A stretch of 44,417 nucleotides of DNA from Escherichia phage jat: sequence record NC_073076.1; one strand, 5' to 3'. This document shows, piece after piece, positions 10,207-39,434 of this stretch. The notes under the pieces are model-generated. The model saw nothing but the letters and a program-made list of their open reading frames with translations. It was not told the DNA's origin and ran no database searches. Both the position numbers and the translations under genes were made by a program. Each line of letters opens with the position of its first letter. The first letter of the stretch is position 1.

Positions 10207-10372
10207 TATTCAGTCTCAGACGAGGGGGGCCATTGACCCCCGTCTAGTCTGAAAGACTGGGCTTTGTCCCGCTTGTCCCGCTCCTCTGGAAGCCGCGCCA
10301 TCCGGGGCGGGACGGGGGTGCTGTCCCGCTTTGTCCCGCCCCTTGTTTGTCCCGCTTTTTGTCCCGCTCAGT
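10207..10372. repeat. iteron element copy A: long imperfect hairpin plus six TGTCCCGC octamers
   Basis: Hairpin cagtctcagacgaggggggccattgacccccgtctagtctgaaagactg (10212-10259) followed by TGTCCCGC at 10265, 10274, 10323, 10334, 10349, 10361 and one inverted copy GCGGGAC at 10309; about 85 percent identical to 37643-37802. Confidence 0.65.
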
Positions 10373-10473
10373 TTATTCAGTTTTATTGCATAACTATTCA
10401 TTATACTCACACTACACGGCAACCAATACGACCAGATAAAAACACTCAAAATGGCAACCAATGCGCGCAAAAT

Positions 10474-21780: not shown

Positions 21781-22472
21781 TAATCTGGTCATTGTTTGAC
21801 GGCAGCGGCTTGATGATTGAGCGTGCTGCCGAGATGGGGCATAAGTGTTATTGCTTCAACTATTCCGAAGCCGATCACGGGTCTTACCTTGACTACCGGA
21901 TTTATGGTCGCGGAATCCGATATCGCAATGAGTTTATAGATATGGACTTTGTGGACCGCGCGATGAATGGCGATTTCGGTACGCCGGATATCATCTATGC
22001 ATTCCCTCCGTGTACGGATCTGGCAGTGAGCGGCGCGCCAGCTTTCCCGCGCAAGCGTGCGAAAGACCCAGCCTTTCAGCTTAAGGCGGTGCGCACCGCG
22101 AAGATCGCCGCTTACCTGGGTGACTTCTTCGAAGTGCCATATATGATTGAGAATCCGCGCAGTGTGCTCTCCACCCAGTGGCGCAAGCCAGACCACTCGT
22201 TTGATCCGTGGGAGTATGGGGGCTATCTGCCGGAGGATGACGTACACCCGCTCTTCCCGGAATACATCAACGCCCGCGATTCATATCCGAAGCGGACCTG
22301 CTTATGGACCGGCAACGGCTTTCGTATGCCAGAGAAAAAGCCTGTATTCGTTGAAAAAGGGTACTCGAAGCAGTATAGTCGCCTCGGAGGCAAATCAGCC
22401 CGCACCAAATTAATCCGGTCGCTCACCCCGCGCGGCTTCGCGATAGCGGTCAATGAGGAAAATTTAAAATGA
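21777..22472 (+). CDS. C5-cytosine methyltransferase-like protein (compact)
   Basis: 231 aa; motif I-like LFDGSG, motif IV-like FPPCTDLAVSGA (Pro-Cys), motif VI-like ENP; ATGA overlap with helicase stop. Confidence 0.45.
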   Translation: MIIWSLFDGSGLMIERAAEMGHKCYCFNYSEADHGSYLDYRIYGRGIRYRNEFIDMDFVDRAMNGDFGTPDIIYAFPPCTDLAVSGAPAFPRKRAKDPAFQLKAVRTAKIAAYLGDFFEVPYMIENPRSVLSTQWRKPDHSFDPWEYGGYLPEDDVHPLFPEYINARDSYPKRTCLWTGNGFRMPEKKPVFVEKGYSKQYSRLGGKSARTKLIRSLTPRGFAIAVNEENLK

Positions 22473-25387: not shown

Positions 25388-25963
25388 ATGTACGGCGAAT
25401 ATGAAATATCCGGTAAACAATTCCACCTGGCGGCAATGATAGCAAGCATCGAGTTTGATCAATGGCGCTTAAAGTCCGACGCGTGCAAGCAAAGCCGTCT
25501 TGTTGGTGTGCTGGGCGAGATGTTTGCAGGAATGTACCTTGAGGGTCAAGCGGGCGGGCGTAGTTGCATACCGCAAGGCTTACTAATGCGTACCGGCCTG
25601 TTTAGCGCCAATACCATCGACCGCGGCGATATCATCATGGTCGGCAAGCGCAAGGTAAAGTCCGGTCCAGACTTCCGCGAGCATGTGATCGATGCCGTAT
25701 GGACCTACGAGGTTAAGGCCACCAGCGGCATCCGTCGAGGGCTGGTAGAGGCGCGTTGCGCTCGCGAATATCTATCACGTCGCGTTGCCGGCGTTATCCT
25801 GGTGGGTGTATCGTTCTGTCAGCACAGCGCGCATGGCGTGATTGAGGATATCGCAGAGCCATACGTGATTGTGAACGATTGGCCTTTGGTGGAAGTGGAA
25901 GGAAAGGAATATTACGAAAGCCCGCTGGTGCGGCGCAAAATGGACTGGGAAAACTCAAACTAA
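25388..25963 (+). CDS. hypothetical protein
   Basis: 191 aa; last gene of plus-strand block, followed by bidirectional terminator. Confidence 0.45.
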   Translation: MYGEYEISGKQFHLAAMIASIEFDQWRLKSDACKQSRLVGVLGEMFAGMYLEGQAGGRSCIPQGLLMRTGLFSANTIDRGDIIMVGKRKVKSGPDFREHVIDAVWTYEVKATSGIRRGLVEARCAREYLSRRVAGVILVGVSFCQHSAHGVIEDIAEPYVIVNDWPLVEVEGKEYYESPLVRRKMDWENSN

Positions 25964-25995
25964 AAAAGGGGCCGTATGGCCCCTCTCTTATTTCT
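25961..25995. terminator. bidirectional rho-independent terminator
   Basis: aggggcc/ggcccct 7-bp stem with gtat loop, A6 upstream and T-rich downstream, between convergent genes. Confidence 0.6.
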
Positions 25996-34304: not shown

Positions 34305-34939
34305 CTTACGAATCCAATAGCAGTCTTAAGGGTGGCGGATACCGTTGCCGTGTAGTGCCCGTTGTCAGTGTACGACAAGCTCGAACGCTCGACCACGAAT
34401 AAACCTGTTTCGCCATCCGGCGCGGTGACGACAAACGGTTTGACGAAGTGCCCGCGAAGGAAGTTGTAAACCAGTTTAGGGTTGCACCACTTGTCAGTAG
34501 TCAGTCCGATGAATTGCACGGGGAACTGTTTCGTTTCGGCGTTCGGGCCGTCCGCGATGTTCTGACCGTAACCGTTACCAAACTGCAATTCCTCGGACCG
34601 GAAAGCCAACTGCACGTCTCCGCCGCCTTGCAATTGCATGTGCCAGTAATAGGGCCATTCGTTTGATCGCGGGTCGTGCGCTTCGATTAGCTCATAAGCT
34701 GCACCGGCTTTTGTCGGTCCGGCCCAGTTATCCGCCAGGGTGATGACGGTGTTAGAGTTGAATGCCGCAATTTTTCCGGTGTAGTCGTTGCCGTCGATGC
34801 GGGTAAATACGCTGACCTTCCCGATCTCGCTCAGGAACGCGGTTCCCACGCCTGTGATGGTCTTACTTCCCTTAGTTAGTGTGATTGTACCTTGCGCCAT
34901 AAAAAAGCCCCCACGTTGTAGTGAGGGCCATTTTATCAT
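34301..34939 (-). CDS. minor tail protein (lambda M-like C-terminal domain with N-terminal extension)
   Basis: 212 aa; C-terminal block FGNGYGQ...FIGLT resembles gpM; ATGA overlap with tape-measure stop; alternative ATG at 34900 preceded by a hairpin. Confidence 0.65.
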   Translation of the reverse strand: MIKWPSLQRGGFFMAQGTITLTKGSKTITGVGTAFLSEIGKVSVFTRIDGNDYTGKIAAFNSNTVITLADNWAGPTKAGAAYELIEAHDPRSNEWPYYWHMQLQGGGDVQLAFRSEELQFGNGYGQNIADGPNAETKQFPVQFIGLTTDKWCNPKLVYNFLRGHFVKPFVVTAPDGETGLFVVERSSLSYTDNGHYTATVSATLKTAIGFVR

Positions 34940-37578
34940 CGTTTGTAAAGTACACCACCCGGTTTCGTCGCCTTCACGATCTCGGCCTTGACCGACTCGG
35001 TGATTTGCTTTCCGAACGCCTGCGCGGTGCGCAGGTCTGGACCGCTAACACTGGTATCCGTCTTACCGGTCCCCATGTTAACGTTGGTCGTTACAATCAT
35101 CCCTCCGCCTACACCGGCAGCGACAACGCCCAGTTTGCCGTCCGGGCCGCGCTTCAGTGGCATGATGGCCTCGGGTCCGGCCTCCCCCATCAATCCCGCG
35201 CCCTTTGCGAACGCCTGGACGCCGTAACTGAAAAAGGTGGGCTGGCTTACCACTTGCCCCGAATAGGCCGCGAGATTGCCCCCTGCGTACGCTCCTCCGT
35301 CCGCATTCTTAGTTAGGCCAGAGAAGATAGCGCCGAACAATCCGTTTTTGCCGCCGTCGCCACCGAAAGCGCTAACGATGGACTTGAATGCCTGCGAGGT
35401 AGCCAGCTTGATTAATTCGCTCAGGATGGACTTAACCATATCCTTTGCGTTCAGCTTGCCAGTCTCGAAAAACTCGTTCATCGTGTCCTGCATAGCGCCG
35501 AACGTGAATTTTGTGAGTGACGTCATCTGCGTGTAGCCGTTACCCATTTCATCCACGCTATCCTTAAGCCCGCGGCTGAAGCCATCCCATAGCGAGGCGT
35601 TAGCACCGGTCTGTGCTTCCTGCACTTCGCGCAGCTTAGACACCGCCAGGTCAATATCGGTATCGTTAGCACCAACGCGCTTAAGGCGGTCAATCAGCTG
35701 TAATTCTTCGCGCAGGTTAGCCGCTTCGCGAGTGGAAAGCGCATAGCCCGCCGCGGTGGCTTTTAGCTCGGCGTTCTGGTTCTTAACGAAGGCGTCGATC
35801 TGCGCGTGCGCCTTGACCTGCTTCTCTTTCGCGTCCAGCAATTTGGCTTCTTCGACGATCTGCTCGCGTACTTCCTTCACGCGTCCGAATTCGACCATCT
35901 GCTGCTTTTCTGCTGCCGTTAGTGCTCTTTCTTTGCTTGCTGCGATTAACTGCTCATTATCCGCGATCAGCTTGTTTAGGGCCGCCTGCGCGCGTTGCGT
36001 GCGGGTCTGCGTCGATGCGTTGGCTTCGATCTGCTTGCCGGATTCTCGAAGCTGGGCCAGTTCGCTCCGTGCTACTTCCAGCATTTTCAGCCCGGCATCG
36101 ACTCGAACAGCGGCGGCCTTCTTCGGGGCGGGGTCTTTGTACCGCTCGTTGACCTGCTTCACCGCCTCGGCAAGCTCTTTCTCGTCAATCACGCCACGCT
36201 TATTAAGCAAATTGAGGCGGGCGATCTCGTCGGCGCGCCTCTTCGCGTTGGTTGCGTACTCCTTCTCAAACGCGGCGCGGTCGCGGGCGGTGCGGTTTGC
36301 CTCTTCGTTCGCCTTTGCTGCTTCGTCAGCGGCACTTGCGTTGTCTCGCTCTGCACGGTTGCGCAGGGTGAGCGACGCCACTACTTTTTCCTGGGCTACC
36401 AGTTCGCTGTAAAGCATGTTAATACGCGCTTTCTGCGCTTCGGGCATCACCCCACCGGCAGCGTTTACCGCTTTCATCTCGGCATAGTAAGCCGTGGTCA
36501 GTCGCTGCAATGATTCACGCGCTTTCATCTCTGACTCATTCGAGGACTGCGCGCGCCCGACATCCAGGATGGCATCCCACATAGATTTAGCTGCCGATGT
36601 AACGACGTTCATCGACCGCTCAAGCGTACCCATGTTGGACTTGATCTCATTGGTCATAGTGGTAAACGACGCTGCGGCTGTTTTGTTAGCCAGCGCCACC
36701 GCTTCGGTTTCGCGACCAGCCGTCACTAGTGACTGCACCTGCTGGATCTGCGCTTCGTTTACGACGTGATACTTATCCGCCAGCGCACGCAGTCCGCCAA
36801 CGGGGTCGGTTGACAGCTTCGCCACCGCCGCTACCACATCCTCGATCGGCTGGCTGGACGCCTTCGCAAAGTCATTAGCTACCTTAGCCAATGCGCCGAA
36901 GTCACCACCCGCTTTCACACCCGCCGCCGCCAGCGCCTGGATTGTGTCACGCGTCTTGCGGAATGATCCGCCCATGCGCTCGGCGTTCTCGGATAACACC
37001 AGGATCTGGTTTGCAGTGAGGCCGGAAATGTTACCTGACAGCGCCAGCGTCTTGTTAAGCGCGGCGACCTGGTTCTCTGCGCGGGACGTAATTGCCACGC
37101 CCACGCCTAACGTTGCCGTTACGGCGGCGAGGCCGATCCCTACTGGGCCGAGGAAGCCCGCAACATAACGCAGCGTGTTACCCAGTCCACCGAACGCCCC
37201 AGTTAGCTGCGGTAACTGCTGAAGCATGACGCGGTGAACCGGCATCCCCATCTCAAGCGTTACCGCAATATCCTGTAGCTGGAATGCGGCGTTACGCGAG
37301 GCAAAGCCCAGGTTTTTAGTCGACATCCCTAACCTGTTGGCGAGTCGCTCCTGTTTCGTCATGCCATCGGCGGCGCGCTGCGATTCGTTTGCCAGCTTTT
37401 CCATTCCGCCCGCGGCGTCACTCGTCACCTTTTTGGATTTGCCGAGGGTGTCGTTTAATTTCTTAACCTTGTTTTCTGTGTTCTCGGATTTCTGTGCGAA
37501 GGAGTCCAGCACAGTATTTGCCGTTCTGATTTGTGCAACATCAGCCTTTAGCGTGATGCCTGCTGCCTGATCTGCCAT
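34936..37578 (-). CDS. tail tape measure protein
   Basis: 880 aa, Ala/Lys/Glu-rich coiled coil with Gly-rich C-terminal region; longest gene after J. Confidence 0.8.
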   Translation of the reverse strand: MADQAAGITLKADVAQIRTANTVLDSFAQKSENTENKVKKLNDTLGKSKKVTSDAAGGMEKLANESQRAADGMTKQERLANRLGMSTKNLGFASRNAAFQLQDIAVTLEMGMPVHRVMLQQLPQLTGAFGGLGNTLRYVAGFLGPVGIGLAAVTATLGVGVAITSRAENQVAALNKTLALSGNISGLTANQILVLSENAERMGGSFRKTRDTIQALAAAGVKAGGDFGALAKVANDFAKASSQPIEDVVAAVAKLSTDPVGGLRALADKYHVVNEAQIQQVQSLVTAGRETEAVALANKTAAASFTTMTNEIKSNMGTLERSMNVVTSAAKSMWDAILDVGRAQSSNESEMKARESLQRLTTAYYAEMKAVNAAGGVMPEAQKARINMLYSELVAQEKVVASLTLRNRAERDNASAADEAAKANEEANRTARDRAAFEKEYATNAKRRADEIARLNLLNKRGVIDEKELAEAVKQVNERYKDPAPKKAAAVRVDAGLKMLEVARSELAQLRESGKQIEANASTQTRTQRAQAALNKLIADNEQLIAASKERALTAAEKQQMVEFGRVKEVREQIVEEAKLLDAKEKQVKAHAQIDAFVKNQNAELKATAAGYALSTREAANLREELQLIDRLKRVGANDTDIDLAVSKLREVQEAQTGANASLWDGFSRGLKDSVDEMGNGYTQMTSLTKFTFGAMQDTMNEFFETGKLNAKDMVKSILSELIKLATSQAFKSIVSAFGGDGGKNGLFGAIFSGLTKNADGGAYAGGNLAAYSGQVVSQPTFFSYGVQAFAKGAGLMGEAGPEAIMPLKRGPDGKLGVVAAGVGGGMIVTTNVNMGTGKTDTSVSGPDLRTAQAFGKQITESVKAEIVKATKPGGVLYKR

Positions 37579-37642
37579 TATGCAGTCCCCTTTTTTATGC
37601 AGTTGCCGATGGATATTGTATCAGCGATTTCAAAACAAACCT

Positions 37643-37960
37643 TATTCAGTCTCAGACGAGGGGGCCATTGACCCCCGTCTAGTCTGAAAGACTGGGGTGC
37701 TGTCCCGCTGTCCCGATCGGCTGAAAACCGCGGCAGCACTGGCTGGGACGGGGTGCTGTCCCGCTTTGTCCCGCCTAGTGTTTGTCCCGCTTTTTGTCCC
37801 GTTTGTTTTATGCACGAAAACCGAATACGTATGCACTTTTGTGGGGTGGGACAAAACGGGACGTCCCGCTTGTCCCGCTTTTATATTATGCAATGGAAGT
37901 GAGTAGGTATGCAGTTTCACATGGGTGGGACAAAACGGGACGTCCCGTTTTGTCCCGCTT
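37643..37960. repeat. iteron element copy B plus two 45-bp direct repeats containing GGGACGTCCC
   Basis: Hairpin 37648-37694 and TGTCCCGC/TGTCCCGT octamers at 37701, 37709, 37757, 37767, 37783, 37795; direct repeats 37831-37880 and 37909-37960, each with palindrome GGGACGTCCC followed by TGTCCCGC. Confidence 0.65.
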
Positions 37961-37962
37961 CA

Positions 37963-38639
37963 TTATGCGGGGTTCTGCTGCGCCATCTCATCAAGCGCGA
38001 TTCGTTCCATTAGCTTGATATCTTTAAACGCGCGCTGCTCGTTTTCGATACCGTGCATCTTAAATAACCACTCCAGCACGCCGTAGTCGATGCCGTATGC
38101 GCCACCAAATCCGGTGCGCCATTGCGTGGCGCAATCTGTGAAGACTGCGACTACCTTCGCGTTGTCAGGCCACAGCGCAACAGGCGGACAAACATCTTCG
38201 GGGGTCGCACCCCATAAACTTGCGGCTAAATCTTCGGAGGGTGGCGGCGGGCCATAAAAGCGTCGCGCCGCCTCAATTAGTTTTTTTCACGCAATCCCAT
38301 CAGTTCGAGATAGTACGACGTGTGGAACACACCGAACGCGCGTGGATAGTTGACCACCAGGCGGCGGACGTTCTCCGCGTTAAATTCGTCCGGCAGATTC
38401 CAGCCTTCTGCGACGTGCATGATGGCCTCGACCATAACGTTAAAGCCGTCCGGGTCATTGTCGTCATATTCCGACAGCTTTCGTTCGGTGTCCTGCATGG
38501 TCTGCGAAAACTCGTCGATCGGGCGGTGGCGTACGGTAAACGTCATCTTGCCTGGTTCGCTCTCACCAGGGCGCGGGATCTCAATCGGCAGCTTAAATGT
38601 TGGCTTAGGGTCAAGTGTGAAGAGTGGTGCTTTAGCCAT
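37963..38639 (-). CDS. tail assembly chaperone frameshift product (lambda GT-like), programmed -1 frameshift
   Basis: Heptamer A_AAA_AAC (plus 38280-38286) immediately before the G stop; -1 frame stays open for about 104 codons to TAA at 37963-37965. Confidence 0.55.
38277..38639 (-). CDS. tail assembly chaperone (lambda G-like)
   Basis: 120 aa from ATG 38639 (GGAGA SD; track start 38654 is TTG inside a terminator A-run); ends REKN* within slippery sequence. Confidence 0.6.
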   Translation of the reverse strand: MAKAPLFTLDPKPTFKLPIEIPRPGESEPGKMTFTVRHRPIDEFSQTMQDTERKLSEYDDNDPDGFNVMVEAIMHVAEGWNLPDEFNAENVRRLVVNYPRAFGVFHTSYYLELMGLREKN

Positions 38640-38652
38640 TGTAGTATTCTCC

Positions 38653-38680
38653 AATAAAAAAGGGGCCGTGCCGGCCCCAT
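38653..38680 (-). terminator. rho-independent terminator (minus strand)
   Basis: ggggccg/cggcccc 7-bp stem with 3-nt loop; U7 on minus strand (plus A-run 38655-38661); downstream of major tail gene. Confidence 0.6.
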
Positions 38681-38708
38681 ATTATCACTCGCTATCTAAG
38701 CGACCAAA

Positions 38709-39434
38709 TCAAGACAACGCCTCGACCCGATCCTTACGGTAGATAACCATATCAGACTGCATGGTCAGAGTGGACTGCACCGTTTCCACGTTGTTTACTT
38801 CAGCGGAAGGAATCTTCTGGAAAGATACCTTTGCCGGGTAAATACGGATCTCACCTTTGCCGCTTGCTGCCGCTGGGTTAGTGAACTTGATCACAGTGGT
38901 TTTCTGTGTGTCGTCCAGGTCTTCCAGGATTGGGCGGATCGGGTCTTCTTCGTCGTGGGTGAAGGTGTAAGTCTGTACCAACGGGTTTTTCGTGGTGTTC
39001 AGACTGATCGCGGTATTCACCTGCAACGGCTGGAAGGTGGTGGTCTGCTGGTCGCCACCAGACACGGCAACGTTAGTGATAAACGGGAAGTCGATAAAGC
39101 TCGACACCTTCACCACTTCGCCCGGCGTGCCTACGCCGAAAGCGCCGGTAGGGTATTTTGTGACGTCTTGAGTATCGAAGCGCGCCAGCGTCACGTCGTT
39201 AGTATCCACTTTACCCACGATGAACGCGCGGTTAAGCGCTCGGACCCACGGGGTTTTAGTGAACATAACAACGTCGCCAACAACCAGACCATGCGAAGCC
39301 GCGCAGGTAATTACGCAACCTTGCGTAAGGTTGGAGATCGACGCGGCGGCGTTGGTAGCTGCCGTAACCGCGATGCCGCTGCCTAATACGGACCCGATCT
39401 GGACGCTGGACCCGTTGGGAAGTTGATAACCCAT
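38709..39434 (-). CDS. major tail protein (putative)
   Basis: 241 aa; position upstream of G/GT and followed by strong terminator. Confidence 0.6.
   Translation of the reverse strand: MGYQLPNGSSVQIGSVLGSGIAVTAATNAAASISNLTQGCVITCAASHGLVVGDVVMFTKTPWVRALNRAFIVGKVDTNDVTLARFDTQDVTKYPTGAFGVGTPGEVVKVSSFIDFPFITNVAVSGGDQQTTTFQPLQVNTAISLNTTKNPLVQTYTFTHDEEDPIRPILEDLDDTQKTTVIKFTNPAAASGKGEIRIYPAKVSFQKIPSAEVNNVETVQSTLTMQSDMVIYRKDRVEALS

Follow-up and report, generated by a model that had tools for sequence, protein, structure and literature searches.

A conserved heptamer-plus-stop junction in the gene for the tail assembly chaperone of Escherichia phage jat and its relatives, very probably a -1 frameshift site of the lambda G/GT type

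Programmed -1 ribosomal frameshifting in a tail assembly chaperone gene is known from phage lambda, in which the G/GT system was described by Levin, Hendrix and Casjens (1993) and by Xu, Hendrix and Duda (2004, 2013, 2014), studies that are summarised in PMC5009743. In lambda, G exceeds GT by about 30 to 1, and this ratio matters for assembly (PMC5009743). Chaperone frameshifts were previously predicted for ORF22/23 of Edwardsiella phage eiAU (PMC3025963), for the T1-like phages Stevie and Solomon (PMC4319613, PMC8407766), and for gp12/gp13 of Acinetobacter phage Loki (PMC5313236). The insertion sequence IS1 uses the heptamer A_AAA_AAC for a -1 frameshift between insA and insB' that has been proven in E. 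coli; according to PMC4066793, the shift is of low efficiency and sets the low level of the fusion protein. The same article regards A_AAA_AAC as shifting weakly, not strongly, in E. coli, and classes A_AAA_AAC as well as G_GGA_AAC as low-efficiency sites that are nonetheless used (PMC4066793). No paper describing a chaperone frameshift in Dhillonvirus was found.

The chaperone locus and its slippery heptamer

The stretch of DNA that was analysed, hereafter called the window, comprises 44,417 nucleotides from Escherichia phage jat (NC_073076.1). The phage is an E. coli Dhillonvirus: the window shares 98.5% identity with Escherichia phage Gluttony_ev152, and its identity to many further Dhillonvirus genomes is 95-98%. 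The tail genes stand in the standard order of major tail protein, chaperone pair and tape measure protein, and were located on the minus strand in that order: Phage_tail_3 at 39434-38709, a short chaperone ORF (G) at 38639-38277, its extension in the -1 frame (T) reaching to 37963, and the tape measure gene at 37578-34936. The gene immediately upstream of the chaperone gene (38709-39434) encodes the 241-aa major tail (tube) protein, with matches to Pfam Phage_tail_3 (E 1.5e-32) and to phrog_584, major tail protein (E 3.5e-74). The downstream gene (34936-37578) encodes an 880-aa tape measure protein that matches Pfam TMP_2 (E 2.4e-43), Tape_meas_lam_C (E 7.6e-14) and phrog_24 (E 7e-181). Between the major tail and chaperone genes, at 38655-38678 on the minus strand, a terminator scan located a strong hairpin resembling an intrinsic terminator, GGGGCCGGCACGGCCCC followed by T6, with seven G-C pairs, a loop of 3 and a T-rich tail. 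Similar hairpins occur at 273-303 and 25961-25991. The hairpin at 38655-38678 probably leaves the chaperone and tape measure genes less transcribed than the gene for the tube protein.

The G-type ORF (38277-38639, minus strand) has 120 codons, from an ATG at 38639-38637 to a TAA at 38279-38277, and a Shine-Dalgarno-like GGAGA (38648-38652, minus strand) was read in the sequence 8 nt before the ATG. All of its residues, 1-120, align with Pfam PF08748, Phage_TAC_4 (E 1.4e-23; 83.9 bits against a cut-off of 21.1), and by this homology the product is predicted to be a tail assembly chaperone. The T part (37963-38280, minus strand) consists of 105 codons, LIEAARRFYG...QQNPA, and a TAA stop at 37965-37963. 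Residues 23-99 of this extension (37984-38214, minus strand) form a DUF1799 domain that covers the whole Pfam PF08809 profile, positions 1-80 of 80 (E 2.5e-21; 76.1 bits, cut-off 26), and that also matches phrog_680 (E 8.7e-31). In addition, the two halves of a single family, phrog_17368 (213 positions), match the 120-aa ORF and the extension respectively. Comparison of the GT fusion with NCBIfam, and by sequence with solved structures, gave no match.

Direct reading of the minus strand places the last codons of the chaperone ORF at GAA 38288-38286, AAA 38285-38283, AAC 38282-38280 and TAA 38279-38277, within the context ...CTG ATG GGA TTG CGT GAA AAA AAC TAA TTG AGG CGG.... The preliminary description, made from the sequence, had given this ending with the right coordinates, and had rightly read a canonical X_XXY_YYZ heptamer directly before the stop. 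The heptamer, A_AAA_AAC at 38280-38286 (minus strand), lies in the phase with the chaperone ORF that is needed for tandem tRNA slippage. Immediately 5' of it the -1 frame is closed by a TGA (38287-38289, minus strand), which confines the possible shift window to the heptamer, and immediately 3' of it the 0 frame is closed by the TAA (38277-38279, minus strand), a possible pausing element whose adjacency is kept in relatives. The upstream TGA is not kept in all relatives; SECphi18, for example, has CGA there. After the TGA the -1 frame reads AAA AAA CTA ATT GAG... and stays open for 105 sense codons beyond the slip, as far as the TAA at 37965-37963. The two open frames thus overlap in the 7-nt heptamer alone, and because both are closed on either side, the heptamer is the sole place where a -1 shift can join them. 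The residues added after the slip are LIEAARRFYGPPPP...DEMAQQNPA, the junction of the predicted fusion is ...LREKN-LIEAARRFYG..., and the total product has 225 aa. It was earlier estimated by hand that the -1 frame would remain open for about 104 codons and give a GT-like fusion of about 224 aa. The openness of the frame, its end point and the fusion geometry stand, with no early stop after the heptamer, and each length is raised by one, to 105 codons for the frame and 225 aa for the fusion. Within the T frame the earliest codon of the ATG, GTG or TTG kind is a GTG at 38079, codon 70 counted from 38286, and none is present in the first 69 codons. The observation reported in the preliminary description is thereby confirmed, and its interpretation as a G/GT frameshift is supported: chaperone homology, gene order, phase, the T domain without a start and the relatives described below all agree with it.

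Conservation of the junction and alternative readings

The 142 loci that were compared come from GenBank phages, from IMG/VR contigs and from a single E. coli prophage. The T domain led to most of these loci, so that there was no selection for the heptamer. X_XXA_AAC followed immediately by TAA or TGA and by at least 80 open -1 codons was present at 132 of the 142 related loci. These 132 collapse to 67 unique junction sequences, and the adjoining stop is found in every one of the 67 (TAA in 38, TGA in 29). The 67 junctions span Dhillonvirus, Eiauvirus, Tunavirus T1, Warwickvirus, Vilniusvirus, Braunvirinae and clades of enterobacterial prophages, with Tunavirus T1, Warwickvirus, Vilniusvirus and Braunvirinae representing the Drexlerviridae. 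The G and T proteins of the T1 relatives, of eiAU-183 and of the enterobacterial prophages are only 35-47% identical to those of the window, and the heptamer is still kept. A tblastn search with the extension found 787 phage records, and the alignments to T1 (39% identity), eiAU-183 (47%) and the Ralstonia phages (40%) begin with residue 1 of the query, encoded by the codon that directly follows the shift.

At the codon level, the Lys codon at position -2 is AAA in 65 of 65 junctions, compared with a share of 61% for AAG among the Lys codons of this phage's structural genes, and the Asn codon at -1 is AAC in 67 of 67. The residue at codon -3 is variable (Glu, Val, Ala, Gln, Arg or Leu), with a third base that is always equal to X. 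The conserved Gly at -6 and the conserved Arg at -4 each make use of all four codons. The AAA and AAC of the heptamer never change synonymously, whereas nearby conserved codons vary freely. T1-like phages have a run of six A only (GCA AAA AAC or GTA AAA AAC). Ralstonia phage YO005_1 (locus L111, 895-904) and Acidovorax phage Aval (locus L026, 895-904) have G_GGA_AAC and then TGA at the identical position, and the T frame of these G_GGA_AAC phages continues ...GKLIEAARRLY... where the window has ...LIEAARRFY.... A change from A to G at all three X positions together is what would be expected of a slippery site, and would be hard to explain otherwise.

Several exceptions were found. A T1-related clade of five loci (L137-L141, at approximately 900-915) lacks the heptamer and reads CGC GCA AAG GTC TAA; the only shift-prone element is a tetramer, A_AAG, one codon before the stop, and the T frame goes on GLKRAVY.... 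Three IMG/VR loci (L035, 1520-1527; L036, 1490-1497; L037, 1520-1527) have A8 in place of A7, which makes G and T one in-frame ORF (...REKKLRQVAAAMY...); L037 has an additional frameshift within T. One T1-like contig (L039, 1505-1509) has A5 in place of A6. Such A8 and A5 runs may reflect errors in homopolymer sequencing, or the slippery run may really differ in length there. The junction is normal and the T frame is broken in two further loci (L038 and L076).

Alternative readings were weighed against these data. Transcriptional slippage, in which RNA polymerase would occasionally add one A in the A7 run (GAAAAAAAC), would put G and T into one frame of the mRNA and yield the same fusion, except for Lys in place of Asn at the junction (...REKK-LIEAAR...). 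Seven consecutive A are present in the window and in most relatives, and the A8 DNA of the three IMG/VR loci fuses G and T, so that a change in run length does give the same fusion product. Against this reading, T1-like phages have only A6, and the GGGAAAC of the Ralstonia and Acidovorax phages, at the same codon phase, contains no homopolymer long enough for slippage. Appreciable slippage by E. coli RNA polymerase generally takes place only on runs of about nine or more. Neither the C following the run nor the heptamer's phase ever varies, and both are needed for tRNA re-pairing, not for polymerase slippage. Transcriptional slippage is accordingly judged a highly improbable source of the fusion, and may make a small contribution in this phage. 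A different arrangement is implied by the database annotations, in which no fusion is made and the DUF1799 ORF is a separate protein, produced either through internal initiation or through reinitiation after termination at the G stop. Separate small CDSs are annotated here in GenBank and RefSeq, a 'DUF1799 domain-containing protein' was called by PGAP in the E. coli prophage relative with a start 18 nt after the G stop, and in the window an ATT codon overlaps the TAA (TAATT). Such a separate T protein is very unlikely, insofar as initiation at the first standard start, codon 70, would leave a 31-aa fragment without two thirds of the Pfam domain, and the codon overlapping the stop is ATT, ATA, AGG, AAA, AGA, ATC or ACC depending on the clade, with no start conserved. 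It would also leave unexplained the strict nucleotide conservation of the heptamer and the amino-acid homology that extends right up to the shift site.

It might also be supposed that the heptamer is accidental and the -1 ORF a functionless remnant of a decayed gene. In-phase XXXYYYZ heptamers are indeed common, with 54 in the stop-to-stop ORFs of at least 100 codons in the window; few of these adjoin a 0-frame stop with a long -1 frame after it. An origin by chance is vanishingly unlikely and is effectively refuted by the comparative data, since the T frame is intact and conserved at the protein level in more than 130 loci of very different phages, the Pfam match is full-length, and the signal is conserved at synonymous sites. 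One further candidate in the window was rejected as a second frameshift: on the plus strand at 22460-22472, AAATTTA and TTTAAAA (22460/22463) lie at the stop of a 231-aa ORF with 107 open -1 codons, and the gene that follows begins at an ATG of its own, within an ATGA overlap.

Candidate stimulators and the spacer before the tape measure gene

Downstream of the heptamer, a stem-loop of the form GGCGGCG-N16-CGCCGCC (38243-38272, minus strand) is a candidate 3' stimulator. It starts 7 nt after the heptamer and has a minimum free energy of -17.1 kcal/mol. The 42-nt local hairpin has a z of -2.0, with 8 of 200 shuffles folding equally well, and no signal appeared (z -0.08) when a wider stretch, 101 nt downstream of the site, was folded. 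In eiAU-183, T1, Warwickvirus, Vilniusvirus and a Ralstonia phage a stem occupies this register too (+8 to +37); in all, six clades keep the hairpin register. Compensatory changes in the stem include GGCGG/CCGCC to GGCTG/CAGCC, CG/CG to UUU/AAA, and GC-to-UA double changes at three pairs. In an ungapped alignment of 14 sequences, 78.6% of cells were paired, compared with 35-58% when the partners were slid, with one slid control scoring about as high for covariation. Part of the stem is fixed by conserved codons for Ala and Pro, which it overlaps. Braunvirinae lack the hairpin, the prophage clades have it in weak form or at another position, and in Aval a 13-bp stem starts 3 nt past the heptamer. 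Taken together, it is plausible that the hairpin is a lineage-specific stimulator. An Rfam scan of 37400-38750 returned no known frameshift element, only sub-threshold chance matches to plastid and microRNA families on palindromic repeats. An upstream Shine-Dalgarno-like stimulator was considered and rejected; the only candidate, a conserved Gly codon (GGN) that precedes the heptamer by 8 nt, is explained by protein conservation.

The other candidate stimulator is the stop itself. X_XXA_AAC_UAA/UGA is invariant across the heptamer-carrying Phage_TAC_4/DUF1799 junctions while the hairpin comes and goes, and for this reason the stop may be functional. Part of the adjoining stop is perhaps forced by a conserved Leu codon of the T frame (CTA or CTG); CTC and CTT were never seen for this Leu, and the next T-frame codon always begins with A. 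We tentatively propose that the stop directly 3' of the heptamer might be a working part of the signal, a slowly decoded stop in the A site making both weak heptamers shift enough. Such a stop-assisted shift could proceed, for example, via P-site slippage of tRNA-Asn. If this proposal is true, these junctions would represent a stop-assisted class of phage chaperone frameshift signal, with an efficiency dependent on the release-factor activity of the host. Neither the conservation of the heptamer plus stop nor the hairpin is described in the reports on eiAU, Stevie and Solomon (PMC3025963, PMC4319613, PMC8407766).

From the T stop to the tape measure gene, the minus strand carries a non-coding, repeat-filled spacer of 384 nt (37579-37962) that is not part of the frameshift signal. 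It contains two copies, 79 nt apart, of a perfect palindrome with the halves GGGACAAAACGGGAC and GTCCCGTTTTGTCCC. A 155-nt element within the spacer (37660-37814) is 80% identical to 10225-10379, and each of these two loci has six same-strand TGTCCCGC boxes (14 occur in the window, versus 2.6 expected) and a hairpin, AGACGAGGGGGCCATTGACCCCCGTCT. This repeat array looks like a set of putative sites at which a phage regulator binds, or like a promoter or a processing region. The tape measure gene comes directly after T in the E. coli prophage relative. An A_AAA_AAG heptamer is also present at 37590-37596 (minus strand), 12 nt before the ATG of the tape measure gene. It is in phase with a stop-to-stop ORF of 100 codons over the repeats, which has two in-phase heptamers (37596/37593) just upstream of that ATG. 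Probably this ORF is spurious and the A/G-rich run serves for ribosome binding at the tape measure gene.

Proposed mechanism, annotation and comparison with known systems

Based on the anatomy of the site and its conservation, we consider it highly likely that the locus uses a programmed -1 ribosomal frameshift of the lambda G/GT type that gives a 225-aa fusion. Most ribosomes translating the 120-aa chaperone gene would end at the TAA at 38279-38277 and yield the short chaperone. A small fraction would slip back one base on A_AAA_AAC, with tRNA-Lys moving from AAA to AAA and tRNA-Asn from AAC to AAA. The shifted ribosomes would then read CTA ATT GAG..., adding the 105-aa part with the DUF1799 domain and producing the 225-aa fusion. 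The analogy with lambda suggests that the G part, common to both products, may coat the tape measure protein, and that the rare T part may recruit the major tail protein for polymerisation of the tube around the tape measure; neither G nor GT would be expected to stay in the virion. The efficiency of the shift could be very low, A_AAA_AAC being a poor shifter in E. coli (PMC4066793; PMC5009743). Given the lambda precedent of a high G:GT ratio, a weak site fits, and the heptamer here would suit a low GT:G ratio. The adjoining stop and the hairpin 7 nt downstream would probably raise or tune the shift by pausing the ribosome. A search of the literature for this phage and its close relatives found no direct observation or proteomic report of the fusion protein.

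The frameshift site is very probably real, strongly conserved in relatives, and unmarked in the records that were inspected. A joined G-T CDS was sought in ten GenBank/RefSeq records, among them those of the PGAP-annotated E. coli prophage relative, of eiAU-183 and of T1, and five of the ten from Dhillonvirus or T1-like phages; none was found in these ten. G is annotated as a 363-nt CDS in Oekolampad, McMelon, SECphi18 and Opt212. The stub that begins at the GTG at 38079 is called in these records as a 31-aa 'DUF1799' or 'hypothetical' protein, and other records show small spurious ORFs. Misleading names for the chaperone pair were observed in the records of SECphi18 (L003), McMelon (L002), eiAU-183 (L023) and Aval (L026): G is called 'major tail protein' in SECphi18 and T 'FAD-dependent oxidoreductase' in Aval (gp32). 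In PHROG-derived annotation both G and T appear as 'tail length tape measure protein', a label carried by phrog_569 and phrog_680. The main value of the present analysis lies in annotation, in that the X_XXA_AAC-plus-stop junction supplies a simple rule for the 225-aa GT product across a large family of chaperone pairs, many of whose phages are candidates for phage therapy. The two heptamers, the invariant adjoining stop, the tetramer variant and the clade-dependent hairpin form a series that is useful for annotation and for testing the stimulation of weak heptamers. Biologically the case is ordinary, one more well-supported example of a known and widespread mechanism.

Among the systems introduced above, IS1 has the identical heptamer, used to make a transposase instead of a phage chaperone; it has no established stimulator, and in the account given by PMC4066793 its stop forms no part of that signal. 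Loki comes from a different host. The eiAU and T1-like phages have the G and T families in common with the window at 35-47% identity, and the AAAAAAC-plus-stop junction as well, and belong to different genera. The match to lambda G/GT takes in every sequence-level feature of that class: gene position and strand, a -1 overlap without a start, an in-phase heptamer and chaperone homology. Both have two overlapping ORFs flanked by the major tail and tape measure genes; the second, read in the -1 frame, has no start of its own, and a canonical heptamer stands right where the first one ends. The Pfam families of lambda G and T are Phage_TAC_2 and Phage_tail_T; the locus in phage jat instead pairs Phage_TAC_4 with DUF1799. 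It differs further in its heptamer (A_AAA_AAC, compared with G_GGA_AAG in lambda), in the stop immediately adjacent to it, and in the 384-nt repeat-filled spacer between T and the tape measure gene. As in lambda, a small chaperone and a rarer, C-terminally extended form of it are to be expected here.
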